A DNA stretch of 59,718 nt, filler included. It is 7 parts of 7 records of this genome, joined end to end, with 100 filler letters (N's around TTAATTAATTAA, not from the genome) between each part and the next. Parts side by side here need not be neighbours in the genome. Positions count along the whole stretch, not along the records: positions 7,632 to 29,041 come from SRR20825006_2048; 6 more parts are not named here. One strand, given 5' to 3'. Each line of letters opens with the position of its first letter. Position 1 is the first letter of the stretch. The notes below the pieces were generated by a model, which worked only from the letters and a program-made list of their open reading frames with translations, searched no databases and was not told where the DNA came from. The position numbers were made by a program, and so were the translations under genes. Of the stretch, positions 14,197 through 21,119 are shown piece by piece.

Positions 14197-14299
14197 CGCC
14201 CTTTACCCATTGCGGCAGGCACAATGACGTGTCTGATCGTGCGCCGTGCGAATCGACACCGACGCACAAGGCAGGCACCACAGGGACGGGAGACGGACC

Positions 14300-14662
14300 A
14301 TGCTGACGTTGATTCCTTTTGATGACGACCGGGTTGTGGGTGCACGTATCTCCGGCAAGATCACCCGCGAAGAATTCGATTCTGTGACCACGGCGCTGGA
14401 AGCCGCGCTGCAAAAACATGAAACGGTACGTTTCTATGCAGAGATGGAAACCTTTGGCGGGGTGTCCATGGATGTATTGTTTCAGGATCTGAAGTTCGGT
14501 CTTGCCCACTGGAAGCATTTCGACCGCGAAGCCGTGGTCACAGATAAGGACTGGATGCGCCGCCTGTCGGTGCTGGCAGACAAGCTGCTGCCGTCCATTG
14601 AGGTGAAGGTGTTCCCCAGTGATGACGCCGACGCTGCCAAAGCCTGGATCTGCGAACCCTGA
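14300..14662 (+). CDS. STAS/SEC14 (SpoIIAA-like) domain protein
   Basis: ISGKITREE...DLKFGLAHWKHFDREAVVTDKDW...AKAWI. Confidence 0.85.
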   Translation: MLTLIPFDDDRVVGARISGKITREEFDSVTTALEAALQKHETVRFYAEMETFGGVSMDVLFQDLKFGLAHWKHFDREAVVTDKDWMRRLSVLADKLLPSIEVKVFPSDDADAAKAWICEP

Positions 14663-14665
14663 TCC

Positions 14666-15103
14666 TTACCTTTCCCGGTCGAGCAATTGCTCCAGATGTG
14701 TCAGGCAAAACTGGTACATCCGGGTGGCGCTTTGCCGGGCTTTCTCCACTTTTTCCTCTGGCGCATTGCCGGCGTCGAAATCAGCCTGCCAGCGCACAAT
14801 GCAGCCAACGGCGGTCTTGGTGATGCTGACTGTGGCGGTAAAGTTGGCCCGTTGGTCCACGCCGGGGCCTTGCAGAATGCGGTAGGAAAATTGCCGTGCC
14901 GCCGGGTCCAGCGCCACCAGTTCTTCTACCACCTGGCTGCCGTCTGCCACGGTGACGGTGCGCACCGCACCGATGCCTTCGCCTTGCACCTGGCAAGCTG
15001 TGACGCCGGGTAACCAGCTCTGTAAATCGCCGAAACCGTGGATCCGCTGCCAGACGCTGTCGGCGCTGAACCGGTAGTCCTGTTGTACATCGATGGCACT
15101 CAT
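14666..15103 (-). CDS. SRPBCC (polyketide cyclase/MxaD-like) protein
   Basis: ADSVWQRIHGFGDLQSWLPGV...GIGAVRTV...EELVALD. Confidence 0.85.
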   Translation of the reverse strand: MSAIDVQQDYRFSADSVWQRIHGFGDLQSWLPGVTACQVQGEGIGAVRTVTVADGSQVVEELVALDPAARQFSYRILQGPGVDQRANFTATVSITKTAVGCIVRWQADFDAGNAPEEKVEKARQSATRMYQFCLTHLEQLLDRER

Positions 15104-15148: not shown

Positions 15149-16036
15149 CTAGCGCTGCAGGCGCAGACGCTGCTGCAGAAATTGTTCGAAGGAGGTGAGG
15201 AACGGGAATTGCTCGCGGACCGGGTCCAGCGGAAATTGCCAGCCCACGGTGTTATTCCACACGTATTGCCGGGCCGCTTCCGCATTGGTCAGCCGCAAGG
15301 CCCACAAGGGAATCTTGAAGGGCAGCGGGCGCTTGCCGGATGCGCGCCGGTAGACGGTCTGCATTTCCGAAACCGTCAGCGCATCGCTGGCCAGGTCGAC
15401 AATTTCTCCCAGGAAAGTATCGGGTTGAGCGAAAATTTCGGCGCTGGCGCGGGCAATGTCGTCCACGGTGACCATGTGAAAACGGGTATCCGGTTTCAGG
15501 CAGCCGGCCAGAGTGGCGAGCACCAGTGCCGGGTTGACGGCTTTCTTGCCACTGTTGCCCATGACGGGCTCGAAAAAATTCTCCATAAAGAACACTTCGC
15601 GCAGAAAGGTGCTGGGTAGCCCGAGGTCGCGAATGTGTTTTTCAATTTCCCATTTGCTACGGAAGTGCAGCACGTCGCCGGCTTCTTCGCAGCCGGCCAC
15701 GGAGGTTTGCACGAAGTGTTGCACGCCGGCCTGGTGGGCCGCATCCGCCAGGCGTTTGCCCTGAGCCACTTCCCGCTCGTACCCGACGCCCTTTTCCCAG
15801 AAATTCTGCACCGCAAAAACGCCATAACAGTCGCTGCAGGCCTGGGCTAGTGACGGGACATCATCCAGGTCGCCAACGATCACGTCCACGCCCCGGCCTG
15901 CCAGCGCCTGGGCGGCGGGTTTGCCCGGGTTGCGGGTCAGCGCGCGTACGGGGAAGCCCTTGTCGAGCAGGTGCGGGATCAAGGCGCCCCCCTGGGCTCC
16001 GGTGGCGCCGGTAACAAGAATGGTTGGTGCGGTCAT
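15149..16036 (-). CDS. NmrA/HSCARG family NAD(P)-binding protein
   Basis: ILVTGATGAQGG, HFRSKWEIEKHI, FFMENF. Confidence 0.9.
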   Translation of the reverse strand: MTAPTILVTGATGAQGGALIPHLLDKGFPVRALTRNPGKPAAQALAGRGVDVIVGDLDDVPSLAQACSDCYGVFAVQNFWEKGVGYEREVAQGKRLADAAHQAGVQHFVQTSVAGCEEAGDVLHFRSKWEIEKHIRDLGLPSTFLREVFFMENFFEPVMGNSGKKAVNPALVLATLAGCLKPDTRFHMVTVDDIARASAEIFAQPDTFLGEIVDLASDALTVSEMQTVYRRASGKRPLPFKIPLWALRLTNAEAARQYVWNNTVGWQFPLDPVREQFPFLTSFEQFLQQRLRLQR

Positions 16037-16155
16037 GGGATAAGCTGCTCCGAAACTCATCAGTTCTGAGCGATGATAGGGGCGTGGCTGAGTGCCACAA
16101 TGACCGAAAGCATCAGTGCGGGGCAGAAATGGCCAAAAGACAGGGGCGTTGCGCG

Positions 16156-16413
16156 TTACGCGGGCAGGAAACCGTTAGAGGGTGAGAGGGTGACAGGCCA
16201 TTGGCGAGCGGAGGAAGGGCCGTGTGGCCCTTCCTCACCGGTGGTGTGTGTATCGTCTTGGCGGTCATTTTGCCAGTCGTCATACTCGTTCAGCGCCTGG
16301 CGGGTCGCCATGCGTGGTCGCAGCGTGTTGCGCGCTTCCTGGTGAACGCCGCCTTTACGCATCAGCGGGTCCATGGCTGCCCAGTTGCGCAGCGGTTTGG
16401 GGCCTTTTGCCAT
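16156..16413 (-). CDS. Small protein (85 aa) with basic N-terminus; candidate ribosome-associated/rescue factor
   Basis: GAGGA RBS then MAKGPKPLRNWAAMDPLMRKGGVHQEARNTLRPR...; ORF well supported, function inferred. Confidence 0.7.
   Translation of the reverse strand: MAKGPKPLRNWAAMDPLMRKGGVHQEARNTLRPRMATRQALNEYDDWQNDRQDDTHTTGEEGPHGPSSARQWPVTLSPSNGFLPA
16211..16236 (-). other. Perfect 11-bp hairpin inside the small ORF (codons ~60-68)
   Basis: GAGGAAGGGCC-ACAC-GGCCCTTCCTC on the minus strand. Confidence 0.8.
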
Positions 16414-16478
16414 TGAGACATCCTCAGTGTTGGCAGGGATGGGTGTTGTGGTGGTGTGGGTAATGTGCTGACGCACAT

Positions 16479-16511
16479 AAAAAAACCCTGATGAGCGCAC
16501 TCATCAGGGTT
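16479..16511 (-). terminator. Intrinsic terminator/attenuator in the 5' leader of the small ORF
   Basis: Minus strand AACCCTGATGAG-TGCG-CTCATCAGGG followed by a T7 run, 66 nt before the ATG. Confidence 0.85.
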
Positions 16512-16541
16512 CAGTTGGCTGCACTGTGCCTGAAGGCGATC

Positions 16542-16586
16542 TCAGTTGTCGGGATAGAGCTTTAACACTGTCATCACTCGCTTCAT
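16542..16586 (-). CDS. Putative leader peptide MKRVMTVLKLYPDN
   Basis: ATG AAG CGA GTG ATG ACA GTG TTA AAG CTC TAT CCC GAC AAC TGA, ending 30 nt before the terminator stem; no clear SD. Confidence 0.55.
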   Translation of the reverse strand: MKRVMTVLKLYPDN

Positions 16587-16619
16587 GTTGTGCACGGCGT
16601 GCGGCCGGTGGGTGTGTGA

Positions 16620-16656
16620 GGCGCGCGATCATACGACCGTCCAGGGCGCTGCGCTA
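16620..16656 (-). promoter_or_regulatory. Putative sigma70 promoter with GC-rich discriminator
   Basis: Minus strand TAGCGC-N17-TATGAT-CGCGCGCC upstream of the leader ORF. Confidence 0.5.
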
Positions 16657-18909: not shown

Positions 18910-21021
18910 TTAGATATCCGCGAAATTTTCCCCGCCTTTCAGCCAGCGGCGCAGCAGTGGCTCAACCCACTGCGGGCAGTCACGCATCAGGTTGTTGGCC
19001 ACTTCTTTAGCGGGTTCCATCAAGGCTTCATCACGCACCAGGTCGGCGATGCGGAACGCCAAATCTCCGGTCTGGCGGGTGCCGAGCCACTCGCCCGGGC
19101 CGCGCAGTTTTAAATCTTCTTCCGCGATAACAAAACCGTCGGTAGTGTCACGCATTACGGCCAGGCGCCGCTTGCCCGTGAGCGACAACGGGTTCTTGTA
19201 GAGCAGCAGGCAGTAGCTTTGCTCGCCGCCCCGGCCCACGCGACCGCGTAACTGGTGCAATTGGGCCAGCCCCAGCCGCTCGGCATTTTCCATCACCATG
19301 AGGGTGGCATTGGGCACATCCACACCCACTTCGATGACGGTCGTGGCGATAAGCAGTTGCGCGTCGCCCCGGGCAAAACGTGCCATCCGTTCGGCTTTTT
19401 CTTTTGCTTTCATGCGCCCGTGGACCAGTTCCACGTTGATGTCTGGCAGAGCCACCTGCAGTTCCGCGAAGGTGGCTTCTGCTGCCTGGGCTTGCAGCTC
19501 TTCGGATTCTTCGATCAGGGTGCAGACCCAGTAGGCCTGTGTGTTTTTGTGCCCAGAGCGTGGCCGGCAGGCATCATTGATGCGTTCGATCACCTGGGGG
19601 CGGCGGCTTTCCGGTAACACCAGGGTATCAATGGGCTTGCGGCCCGGCGGCATTTCGTCGATCACCGAGGTGTCCAGGTCACCGTACACGCTCATGGCCA
19701 AAGTGCGGGGAATCGGGGTGGCGGTGAGCACCAGCTGATGGGGCACCTGACTGCCGTTGGCGGTATCAAAGCGGCCTTTCTCGCGCAGTGCCAGGCGTTG
19801 CTGCACTCCAAAACGGTGTTGCTCATCAATGATGGTGAGTCCGAGCCGGTGGAATTGCACGGCTTCCTGAAACAGGGCGTGGGTGCCGACCACAATGCGG
19901 GCACTGCCATCGGCCAGTGCGGCATTGGTTTCCCGGCGGGCCTTTACGCCCAGGCTGCCGGCCAGCCAATGTACCTCGATACCCAGCGGCGCCAGCCAGT
20001 GGCGAAAATTGTCCCGGTGCTGTTCAGCCAGCAGTTCGGTGGGTGCCATCAGGGCCACCTGGTAACCGGATTCCATGGCGGCAAGGGCCGCTGCCGCTGC
20101 GACTAGCGTCTTGCCTGATCCCACATCGCCCTGCACCAGTCTCAGCATGGGGTGAGGCTGGGCCATGTCGCTCATTAGCTCACCAATAACACGCTGTTGG
20201 GCGCCGGTGAGGGCAAAGGGCAGGCTGGCCTGGAGTTTTGCAAACAGCGTTTGCCCGGCAAGGCGCGGAGCGTGGAACGCTTTTTGCCCAGCGCGTTTTT
20301 GCAGCATGCCCAACTGGTGAGCCACCATTTCTTCCATGACCAGCCGCTTGACTGCCGGGTGTTTGCCTTCCAGCAACAGGTTGACCGGGTCATCCGGGTT
20401 GGGCTTATGCAGCTTGCTCAGGGCGTCGGTGAGGCTGGGCAGTCCGCTCTGGTCCAACAGTTGCGAGGGGATCAATTCCTGGGGCGGATGTGCTTGCAGA
20501 TAATGCAGCGCCTGGCTGGTGAGGTTGCGCAGGGTCTTCTGGCTGACGCCATCGGTGGTGGGGTAGACCGGGGTCAGGGCTTTTTCCAGTGGCGGCAAGC
20601 CGCTGTCCGCATAATCCAGTTGATATTCCGGGTGGTAGAACTCAAGGCCGGCGGAGCCTGGGCGGGGCTCGCCGTAGACGCGAATGGTTCTGCCCCGCTC
20701 CAGGTTGTTCTTCTGGGCGGCAGTGAAATGGTAGAAGCGCAGCGTCACCATGCCGGTGCCGTCGGCCACTTTGCACAGCAGTGAGCGGCGGCGGCCAAAA
20801 ATTACATCGGCGGCCATCACCTGCCCTTCGATGACGACACCGGTTTCCGGGCGCAGGCTGCCGATGGGGGAAATGCGGGTGCGGTCTTCGTAGCGAAAGG
20901 GCAGGTGGAAAAGCAGATCTTCCAGGTTATGCAGGCCCAGCTTGGCCAGCTTCTCGGCGGCAGCCGGCCCCACGCCTTTGAGGCGGTTGAGGGGCAGGCT
21001 GGAGAGGCTGTCATTGGCCAT
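18910..21021 (-). CDS. recG: ATP-dependent DNA helicase RecG
   Basis: LVQGDVGSGKT, DEQHRFGVQQR, TATPIPRTL, ATTVIEVGVDVPNA, QLRGRVGRG. Confidence 0.98.
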   Translation of the reverse strand: MANDSLSSLPLNRLKGVGPAAAEKLAKLGLHNLEDLLFHLPFRYEDRTRISPIGSLRPETGVVIEGQVMAADVIFGRRRSLLCKVADGTGMVTLRFYHFTAAQKNNLERGRTIRVYGEPRPGSAGLEFYHPEYQLDYADSGLPPLEKALTPVYPTTDGVSQKTLRNLTSQALHYLQAHPPQELIPSQLLDQSGLPSLTDALSKLHKPNPDDPVNLLLEGKHPAVKRLVMEEMVAHQLGMLQKRAGQKAFHAPRLAGQTLFAKLQASLPFALTGAQQRVIGELMSDMAQPHPMLRLVQGDVGSGKTLVAAAAALAAMESGYQVALMAPTELLAEQHRDNFRHWLAPLGIEVHWLAGSLGVKARRETNAALADGSARIVVGTHALFQEAVQFHRLGLTIIDEQHRFGVQQRLALREKGRFDTANGSQVPHQLVLTATPIPRTLAMSVYGDLDTSVIDEMPPGRKPIDTLVLPESRRPQVIERINDACRPRSGHKNTQAYWVCTLIEESEELQAQAAEATFAELQVALPDINVELVHGRMKAKEKAERMARFARGDAQLLIATTVIEVGVDVPNATLMVMENAERLGLAQLHQLRGRVGRGGEQSYCLLLYKNPLSLTGKRRLAVMRDTTDGFVIAEEDLKLRGPGEWLGTRQTGDLAFRIADLVRDEALMEPAKEVANNLMRDCPQWVEPLLRRWLKGGENFADI

Positions 21022-21036
21022 GGTTGGGCAACACCG

Positions 21037-21119
21037 CTGTAGGAGCACCTCTCGAGGTGCGGATCTGGTTCCAGCGTCTTACCTGGGTAGGGTTCGCACC
21101 TCGAGAGGTGCTCCTACAG
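21037..21119. repeat. GTAG-type REP doublet (REPIN)
   Basis: Perfect 25-bp inverted repeat CTGTAGGAGCACCTCTCGAGGTGCG / CGCACCTCGAGAGGTGCTCCTACAG with a 33-nt spacer; each arm internally palindromic. Confidence 0.9.

Follow-up and report, generated by a model that had tools for sequence, protein, structure and literature searches.

A small gene with an in-frame hairpin in marine Gammaproteobacteria encodes a putative tmRNA-gated ribosome rescue factor

On the minus strand of the DNA stretch examined here (59,718 nucleotides in all; "the window" throughout), a promoter-like sequence, a short upstream open reading frame (uORF), a hairpin with a run of T and an 85-codon open reading frame (ORF) follow one another within positions 16156-16656, and the locus raises the question of what the small protein does and why a second, perfect hairpin lies inside its own reading frame. 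A first-pass annotation had taken this arrangement for a translation-stress module with a possible rescue or ribosome-binding factor. The uORF, the leader hairpin with its seven T, the ribosome-binding site, the 85-residue ORF and the in-ORF hairpin all lie where that annotation had placed them (Table 1), and its reading of the product is partly supported; it missed the key point, the in-ORF hairpin as a nonstop-mRNA device of the type used by ArfA and BrfA. We consider the small protein to be a putative ribosome rescue factor gated by transfer-messenger RNA (tmRNA), with a sequence not detectably related to ArfA, and give this reading a probability of about 0.5.

The 85-codon ORF is a real and conserved coding gene. 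A first homologue search gave 26 related clusters, those few with names being 'hypothetical', and 21 genomic loci were compared (15 from Alcanivorax, Alloalcanivorax or Alcanivoracaceae, 4 from Marinobacter, and 2 from unclassified metagenome-assembled genomes). The start methionine is common to all 21 relatives, and the variable sites in codons 1-48 of the 21 sequences number 21, 19 and 42 of 48 at the first, second and third codon positions; since the variation is rich in third positions, the gene is translated and under purifying selection. In alignment A1 protein conservation covers Met1 to about residue 48 and returns at an 'EGPxGPS' block, beyond which neither the sequence nor the length (72-215 residues) is conserved. 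Homologues, which the first-pass annotation had proposed to collect, were thus found, with conservation that extends only up to the in-ORF hairpin.

It is the stem itself, GAAGGGCC-N4-GGCCCTTC, that encodes the 'EGPxGPS' block. Conservation of this hairpin, which the first-pass annotation had left to covariation, was borne out: the eight core pairs of the stem showed standard pairing in 98.8% of the cells of a 20-sequence alignment, and four of the eight carried compensatory changes (14 cells), as in the example GAGGGAGC/GCTCCCTC, where the amino acids change on both arms too. The covariation score of the stem was reached by none of 500 column shuffles, and when the partner column was slid the pairing fell to 33-72%. 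In 21/21 close relatives the stem stands in frame ahead of the stop codon, and the 5 to ~150 codons beyond it are unconserved. In 12 of the 21, six or seven T lie directly 3' of the stem, making it a canonical intrinsic terminator, and in those 12 the in-frame stop is at least 17 codons past the stem; termination there therefore yields a nonstop mRNA. The remaining nine have the stem and no T-run (the window, L004-L007, L010-L012 and L018), and the window clade has kept the stem and lost the T-run. Farther out in the family most members likewise have a hairpin just past the core: a strict scan placed a terminator within the ORF in 10 of 28 members, and folds inspected by eye added in-ORF hairpins at that position in L047-L049, L051, L052, L056, L058-L060, L063 and L066.

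We take this layout to be the decisive feature of the locus, and judge it from sequence to be a nonstop-mRNA device like those of ArfA and BrfA. To our knowledge these two are the only proteins that come from deliberately stop-less mRNAs, and both are rescue factors that depend on release factor RF2. ArfA is reportedly split by species, with an RNase III hairpin in some and terminators in others. The transcript of the arfA ORF has been established to end before the stop codon, which places it under trans-translation control (Garza-Sanchez 2011, Chadani 2011, Schaub 2012, summarised in PMC13159725), and BrfA as having a rho-independent terminator in its ORF that gives a nonstop mRNA (PMC6881298). 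Twelve of the 21 close relatives resemble BrfA of Bacillus subtilis in carrying such a terminator within the ORF, the host phylum being different. ArfA and the small family are alike in that the conserved part stops at a hairpin or terminator within the ORF with an unconserved tail beyond it, and in having a basic Gly/Lys motif (KGKGS in ArfA, RKGGxH in the family) preceded by a hydrophobic P-L-F/M-R element. They differ in that the conserved basic motif of the family is N-terminal and followed by a helix, and in the linkage to rtcB and the leader-peptide attenuator described below; we know of neither for arfA.

The family is large. Of 301 genomes drawn from the same GTDB order, 33 (called holders below) gave weaker matches to a profile of the close relatives; these matches lie in small open frames except for a weak one in G095 (198-residue frame, E = 0.004). 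The N-terminal part of the core is basic and bears in the close relatives an RN-x2-A-x2-PLM-RKGG-x-H motif; the core common to the wider set reads RN-x2-A-x2-P-[LI]-[LM]-[RK]-K-G-G-x-H-[EQ]-K, and then comes a basic stretch. A word-indexed search with the core alignment A2 gave at least 832 clusters (90% identity) at E ≤ 0.001 among 913 candidates, and among the 120 matches listed there was no Pfam domain and there were only names of the hypothetical or uncharacterised kind. An exhaustive search of 50%-identity representatives gave 1068 at E ≤ 0.001 and 239 at ≤ 1e-10, nearly all of them 46-119 residues long. In one long representative, P0226 (367 residues), the family core occupies residues 9-55; this may be an ORF extended by read-through, or a fusion, a conceivable partner being rtcB in view of the gene order of L066. 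In an AlphaFold2 model the core (predicted local distance difference test, pLDDT, 71.6) has coil at 1-27 and a helix at 37-51, which is consistent with a peptide that folds only when bound to a partner.

Existing annotation has no place for this family. An hmmscan of the window protein against Pfam at E up to 10 returned only PF14812 at 0.085, and Pfam and NCBIfam gave nothing meaningful for the window protein or for 10 wider members. The nearest clusters in the ESM Atlas are 'hypothetical', and a lead at rank 12, DUF7230, was dropped because it did not match the loci. The literature searched held no description of the small family; comparative-survey supplements on RtcB neighbourhoods and on ArfT relatives were outside the scope of that search.

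Genomic context also points to translation. The small ORF lies directly 3' of rtcB in the four Marinobacter loci and in L043 and L044 (PF01139, E = 1e-130); tblastn with RtcB gave a match inside the flanks of 15 family loci, and rtcB lies within ~2.5 kb of the small gene in 13 of the 33 holder genomes. RtcB was found anywhere in the genome in 20/33 holders vs 27/268 non-holders, counts which are descriptive and not a test because related genomes are not independent. The other 13 holders are without RtcB, and these include both genomes of the window's genus (0/2; G001 and G218), so the small protein does not need RtcB.

A parallel to this operon has been described in Pseudomonas aeruginosa, where according to PMC12057347 the leader peptide PA5471.1 controls armZ by attenuation in response to impaired or stalled ribosomes, ArmZ is an RtcB-like RNA ligase, and the adjacent PA5470/prfH encodes a predicted release factor that relieves macrolide-stalled ribosomes. 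PrfH-RtcB pairs are presented as sequential rescue and repair in PMC9304027 and PMC6514570. The P. aeruginosa layout PA5471.1-armZ-prfH is matched at L093 (G165:C1:2932500-2936300, minus, 3086-1207), in a genome of the same order as the holders, where a Shine-Dalgarno sequence precedes a 13-codon uORF, MQALITLCRSRLA, and a T-rich hairpin region comes next; 3' of these are encoded a 378-residue RtcB-like protein and a 206-residue RF-1-domain protein. Among relatives of the window gene the order is alike, a leader with a short uORF and terminator, then rtcB, then the small gene in the position of PrfH. This agreement in gene order, in which the small nonstop-encoded protein stands where PrfH would be, is the strongest contextual argument that it acts on stalled ribosomes. 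There are differences. RtcB of the relatives fits PF01139 over its full length (~1e-130) and the ArmZ-like protein only over positions 144-425; the window, unlike PrfH-RtcB operons, is without rtcB, the adjacency being seen in the 13 holder genomes given above; and the small protein, unlike PrfH, has no RF-1/GGQ domain (no PF00472 match; ~65 conserved residues without GGQ). The lack of this domain means that the protein cannot itself hydrolyse peptidyl-tRNA; its action would call for recruitment of ArfB or of a canonical release factor, or for some other mode of working.

A second neighbour recurs, a protein of ~310 residues here called protein X, which has no Pfam family. It is encoded directly 5' of the small ORF in L047, L050, L054, L064, L066 and L069, and in G216 by coordinates, and remnants of it are present in L055 and L068; the gene orders include rtcB-X-small (L054, L064, G216) and X-small-rtcB (L066). 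Protein X occurs in 21 of the 301 genomes, 14 of which hold the small family, and in 0/5 of the Alcanivoracaceae genomes searched. Its own family numbers at least 598 clusters, all 'hypothetical'. The AlphaFold2 model is confident (pLDDT 90, predicted template modelling score 0.91). Foldseek gave weak matches only, to acyltransferases of the GNAT family, and VIA-align against 48,161 chains gave a top 50 that were almost all GNAT acyltransferases (Z 7.2-9.1, residues 86-314). Foldseek had no match at E ≤ 0.001; the GNAT reading comes from VIA-align, and with these middling scores we call a GNAT-like fold probable. Protein X looks like an uncharacterised enzyme associated with RtcB. In the three genomes of genus g75 that have a canonical ArfA (G095, G208, G240), protein X is present and there is no clear member of the small family; protein X thus co-occurs with either kind of small factor.

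The leader of the window gene bears on the same question. A short uORF followed by an intrinsic terminator 5' of the regulated gene, as in a leader-peptide attenuator, is found in the window and in relatives. The window has a single copy of the terminator motif AACCCTGRTG...CAGG(N)TTTTTT, where 100 shuffles give an expectation of 0. The motif recurs in 10 of 92 loci searched, all 10 being small-family loci; it lies 5' of rtcB in L009, L013, L015 and L043, and directly 5' of the small gene in the window and in L003, L004, L011, L018, L041 and L045. A relaxed pattern adds L044, for 11 related loci in all. The first-pass annotation had raised the conservation of uORF and terminator, and these 11 loci bear it out; the leader is not universal in the family, however, and in four loci it precedes rtcB, from which it follows that it belongs to the operon of rtcB and the small gene. 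In the relatives the corresponding uORFs are 10-12 codons long and mostly preceded by a Shine-Dalgarno sequence; in the window it is the downstream AUG, at 16574, that aligns with their starts and gives a uORF of 10 codons. The peptides (MSQLKQVSSN, MTALKRGLSY, MKSQLKSSQR and MSIMQWESPLTE, with MTVLKLYPDN in the window) are only loosely conserved as M-[ST]-x-L-K. Sensing of UGA by the uORF stop was rejected, since relatives also end in UAA and UAG.

Folding of the leader RNA of the window gave z = -3.48 vs shuffles, and the terminator was present in the minimum-energy fold of 8/8 leaders; Rfam had no family that matched the leader or any other part of the window. The full leaders have three segments between the uORF and the terminator, in the order A (GCCUUCC), B (GGAAGGC) and C (GUCUUCCGG). 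A ribosome was modelled on the transcript folded as far as the 5' arm of the terminator. With the ribosome at uORF codon 6, A and B pair and C pairs with the 5' arm as an antiterminator in four of five leaders; with the ribosome at the uORF stop codon, the pairing outcomes were mixed among the relatives. A stall-sensing attenuator in the relatives is partly supported by this modelling. In the window, L003 and L004, segments A and B are missing, as a 33-column alignment gap, and the uORF, a C-like segment and the terminator are kept. By this comparison the window leader is a deletion derivative, a reduced version without the alternative-pairing segments, and it retains a possible antiterminator of 5-6 bp. 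The attenuators at rtcB (L009:1465-1837, L013:1486-1858, L015:1461-1833 and L043:2867-3195(-), in Marinobacter and one Alcanivoracaceae genus) have the segments CCUUCC / GGAAGG / CUUCC and the terminator. In the accounts consulted, rtcB-type operons are described as being under other kinds of control, and an attenuator upstream of full-length rtcB may itself be undescribed.

The promoter held only in part. The hexamers and the spacing given by the first-pass annotation are there, and the -10 and discriminator are conserved in relatives, but a sigma-70 consensus scan of the region called 0 promoters, because the -35 hexamer fits TTGACA at two of six positions. The block of -10 and discriminator, GCGTAnnATCGCGCGCC or GCGTAnnATCGCCGCC, is kept upstream of the gene both in standalone loci of the Alcanivorax type and in leader-bearing loci; the standalone loci have GCGTAnnAT and then CGCGCGCC or CGCCGCC upstream of the small gene. 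In the Marinobacter leaders a good promoter, TTGGCA-N17-TAnGCT, stands 5' of the leader, with TTGGCA or TTTGCA at the -35 position. GC-rich discriminators are a mark of promoters repressed by guanosine tetraphosphate (ppGpp), and we infer that control of this type may apply to the promoter of the small gene. Standalone genes also have GGCGTAnnATCGCGCGCC (or GCCGCC) upstream as a conserved block (window 16620-16656; homologous sites L004-L023); farther 5', several Alcanivorax loci carry a CACTAG(T/C)G box, and L010-L012 carry a GCTGGCAC box. These two boxes could be a regulator site in place of a -35 element. A sigma-54 reading of the 'TGGCAC' box upstream in L010-L012 was discarded, the downstream element being wrong.

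Taken as a mechanism, the factor, like ArfA, BrfA and ArfT, would be a back-up for the rescue of ribosomes that have reached the 3' end of a truncated mRNA and stalled there. Its own mRNA would end inside the reading frame, at the intrinsic terminator in most relatives and, in the window clade with its hairpin lacking a T-run, presumably through RNase cleavage or a barrier to 3' trimming. From such a stop-less message the product would be tagged by tmRNA for degradation as long as trans-translation works; with tmRNA saturated or damaged, an untagged product of ~65 residues would accumulate and act. (tmRNA was above cut-off in two of three related genomes searched, the miss being a 94%-complete assembly.) The free protein would bind ribosomes with a vacant A site and promote peptide release, and the basic N-terminal RNxxAxxPLMRKGGxH, whose RKGGxH(E/Q)K recalls both KKGGSTNKK of ArfT (10.1101/465609) and KGKGS of ArfA, is the part that would probably contact the ribosome or the release factor. 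Ancestrally the gene would have stood behind rtcB, in an operon under a leader-peptide attenuator; in the lineage of the window rtcB would have been lost and the attenuator reduced to uORF and terminator. The gating by tmRNA, the ribosome binding and the recruitment of a release factor are what we infer for the small protein, and that it recruits a release factor we hold to be less likely than not. With the same reserve we put forward the wider picture, which may well not hold in full: a further class of such factors in marine Gammaproteobacteria (more than 1000 clusters at 50%), tmRNA-gated by the in-ORF terminator, which with RtcB, and often with a GNAT-fold protein, would make up a 'rescue and repair' operon that senses stalling, is controlled by a leader peptide and gives the role of PrfH to a peptide of 65 residues.

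Several results weigh against the rescue reading. The window copy is without a T-run, and as a substrate for RNase III its stem, at 11 bp, is short. Contigs from three RNA libraries (X2, X3, X5) run through the in-ORF hairpin; read-through transcripts, or DNA in the RNA libraries, must therefore exist. Six members of the wider family (L050, L055, L057, L062, L067, L068) have an ordinary stop right after the core and no in-ORF terminator. RF1, RF2 and a third RF-1-domain frame, ArfB-sized at 141-155 residues, are present in all five Alcanivoracaceae genomes searched, and the Alcanivorax clade has an acidic linker before the hairpin, unlike ArfA and ArfB, whose C-terminal tails are basic. No PDB chain matched the family profile at E up to 10. 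Likeness to ArfA was found neither by hidden Markov model nor by profile-profile comparison: PF03889 (ArfA) had no match to the window protein at E up to 10, and in the nearest genome, G001, nothing above cut-off and nothing at the locus of the small gene, and when a family alignment of 35 sequences was compared with 16 ArfA sequences, hhalign returned a probability of 0.33% with P = 0.18 (local) and of 0.04% (global); the alignment it suggested, RN...DPLMR over N...QPLFR with a Gly/Lys motif after both, is not significant. The 16 ArfA sequences, from the same order, all have KGKGSY; the family does not have KGKGS and has instead the invariant K20, G22 and H24 in RKGGxH. The view of the first-pass annotation that the gene is not simply arfA thus stands. 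Its question whether the hosts lack arfA was answered less clearly: PF03889 was above cut-off in 16 of the 301 genomes and in 0/8 of the window's family, but this carries no statistical weight, as the overlap of ArfA with the small family is one weak case (G095) vs 1.75 expected by chance, with neither present in 252/301. Complementarity with ArfA was for this reason discarded as evidence; the phyletic pattern is compatible with substitution for ArfA and is not evidence for it.

The same facts can be read in other ways. The product may be a tmRNA-gated accessory of the RtcB damage response that binds ribosomes or RNA and recruits no release factor, possible roles being to shield or park damaged ribosomes, to chaperone broken tRNA or rRNA ends for ligation, or to signal the failure of trans-translation. 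The recurrence of rtcB and of GNAT-fold protein X as neighbours would suit such a role, as would a protein that is basic and, by AlphaFold2, mostly unstructured; and a nonstop design tells when a product appears (on tmRNA failure), not what it does. Yet with RtcB lacking in 13/33 holders and X present in 0/5 Alcanivoracaceae, the small protein must work without either, and the only two proteins known to come from such a message, ArfA and BrfA, are both RF2-dependent rescue factors, which makes an accessory role somewhat unlikely. Nor is it easy to see the protein as a mere partner of GNAT-fold X (an antitoxin, inhibitor or substrate, on the model of the TacT-TacA toxin-antitoxin pair). X is encoded directly 5' of the small ORF in seven genomes, with remnants in two more; the adjacency shows in the locus tags P886_0245/P886_0246 and AAGA91_19740/AAGA91_19735; and 14 of the 21 X genomes hold the small family. 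Against these stand 19 of 33 holders without X, including all five Alcanivoracaceae searched, seven genomes that have X and no detectable small gene, and a GNAT assignment made on middling scores (Z 7.2-9.1), and we think a partnership of this kind very improbable.

The in-ORF hairpin, for its part, might be nothing but an operon terminator or an mRNA-stabilising stem lying over a poorly constrained C-terminus, in a gene whose function is unrelated to rescue. Several family members do end with normal stops, the window copy has no T-run, and RNA contigs bridge the stem. What makes this quite unlikely is that the stem lies in frame before the stop in 21/21 relatives, with 5 to ~150 unconserved codons after it, a layout that we otherwise know only from arfA and brfA, and that the rtcB linkage and a leader of the stall-sensing type point to translation. 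The remaining alternative, which we rate as unlikely though less so than the plain terminator, would leave the function much as proposed and change its origin: the family would be a divergent, single-repeat member of the ArfT/GsiB 'KGG' type, shortened between DP and KGG, and so a homologue of ArfT rather than an independent invention. ArfT of Francisella is, as described in 10.1101/465609, a protein of 40 residues with a proposed ribosome-binding stretch, KKGGSTNKK; it is a small protein with a KKGG-type basic stretch, as in our family. Burroughs and Aravind place ArfT within a broad family of GsiB-type repeats (PMC6514570). KGG repeats (PF10685) from the same order read GNFAxDPxxASEAGRKGGQ or RGFASMDPQRQREIAAQGGRAAH, and the family core reads RNWAAMDPLMRKGGVH or RNPFALDPLMKKGGAH; by eye they have in common N/G-F/W-A-x-(M)-D-P ... 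[RK]KGG. The spacing from DP to KGG is, however, ~5 residues shorter in the family, PF10685 had no match to the window protein at E up to 10, and in five genomes at E up to 1 its matches fell elsewhere and none at the small gene. ArfT, moreover, is in the account of 10.1101/465609 neither made from nonstop mRNA nor regulated like ArfA.

The coordinates are collected in Table 1. In the window the small gene stands alone, with a divergent TraB/GumN-like gene on one side and an NmrA-like gene on the other, and rtcB was not found beside it. The NmrA-like protein (15149-16060 (-)) is followed by a polyketide cyclase/SRPBCC protein (14666-15103 (-)) and a SpoIIAA-like protein (14246-14662 (+)); at 18910-21048 (-) lies a 712-residue ORF that by eye, from its translation, is a RecG-like helicase. 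A terminator scan found none between the stop of the small ORF and the NmrA-like gene 96 nt downstream. Assembled contigs from four RNA libraries span the small ORF, and one from library X4 reaches 5' of the proposed promoter; in assembled contigs transcript ends are not resolvable and DNA carry-over is possible.

Table 1. Positions of the proposed elements of the small-gene locus (window coordinates) and of protein X (coordinates within each locus).
Feature	Position	Strand	Basis or remark
-35-like hexamer TAGCGC, 17 nt 5' of the -10	16651..16656	(-)	sequence; 2/6 match to TTGACA
-10 hexamer TATGAT (16633-16628) and GC-rich discriminator CGCGCGCC (16627-16620)	16620..16633	(-)	sequence
Leader uORF, 14 codons MKRVMTVLKLYPDN + UGA	16542..16586	(-)	sequence; second in-frame AUG at 16574
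Leader intrinsic terminator, 13-pair stem 16512-16483, T7 to 16479	16479..16512	(-)	terminator scan
Shine-Dalgarno GAGGA, 7 nt 5' of the ATG	16421..16425	(-)	sequence
Small-protein ORF, 85 codons + stop, begins MAKGPKPLRNWAAMDPLMRKGGVH	16156..16413	(-)	stop 16158-16156, ATG 16413
Conserved core, codons 1-48	16270..16413	(-)	alignments A1 + A2
Intragenic GC hairpin, perfect 11-bp stem + 4-nt loop, codons 60-68	16211..16236	(-)	no T-run in window clade
Protein X	L054:1526-2449	(-)	
Protein X	L064:1651-2589	(-)	
Protein X	L066:543-1487	(+)	
Protein X	L050:523-1482	(+)	
Protein X	L069:384-1439	(+)	

If the rescue reading is true, a large unnamed family would supply a new rescue factor that joins the nonstop-encoded ArfA and BrfA, and it would help to explain how many marine Gammaproteobacteria without ArfA survive the failure of tmRNA. 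The recurrent place of the gene behind rtcB, under an attenuator, links the rescue of stalled ribosomes to RNA repair as for PrfH-RtcB, and suggests by analogy that the logic of a 'rescue plus repair' operon may have been assembled more than once, here with a peptide that has no hydrolase domain. The GNAT-fold neighbour, protein X, is a second uncharacterised component of interest, and the gene family itself occurs in marine oil-degrading bacteria, where it had until now gone unannotated.

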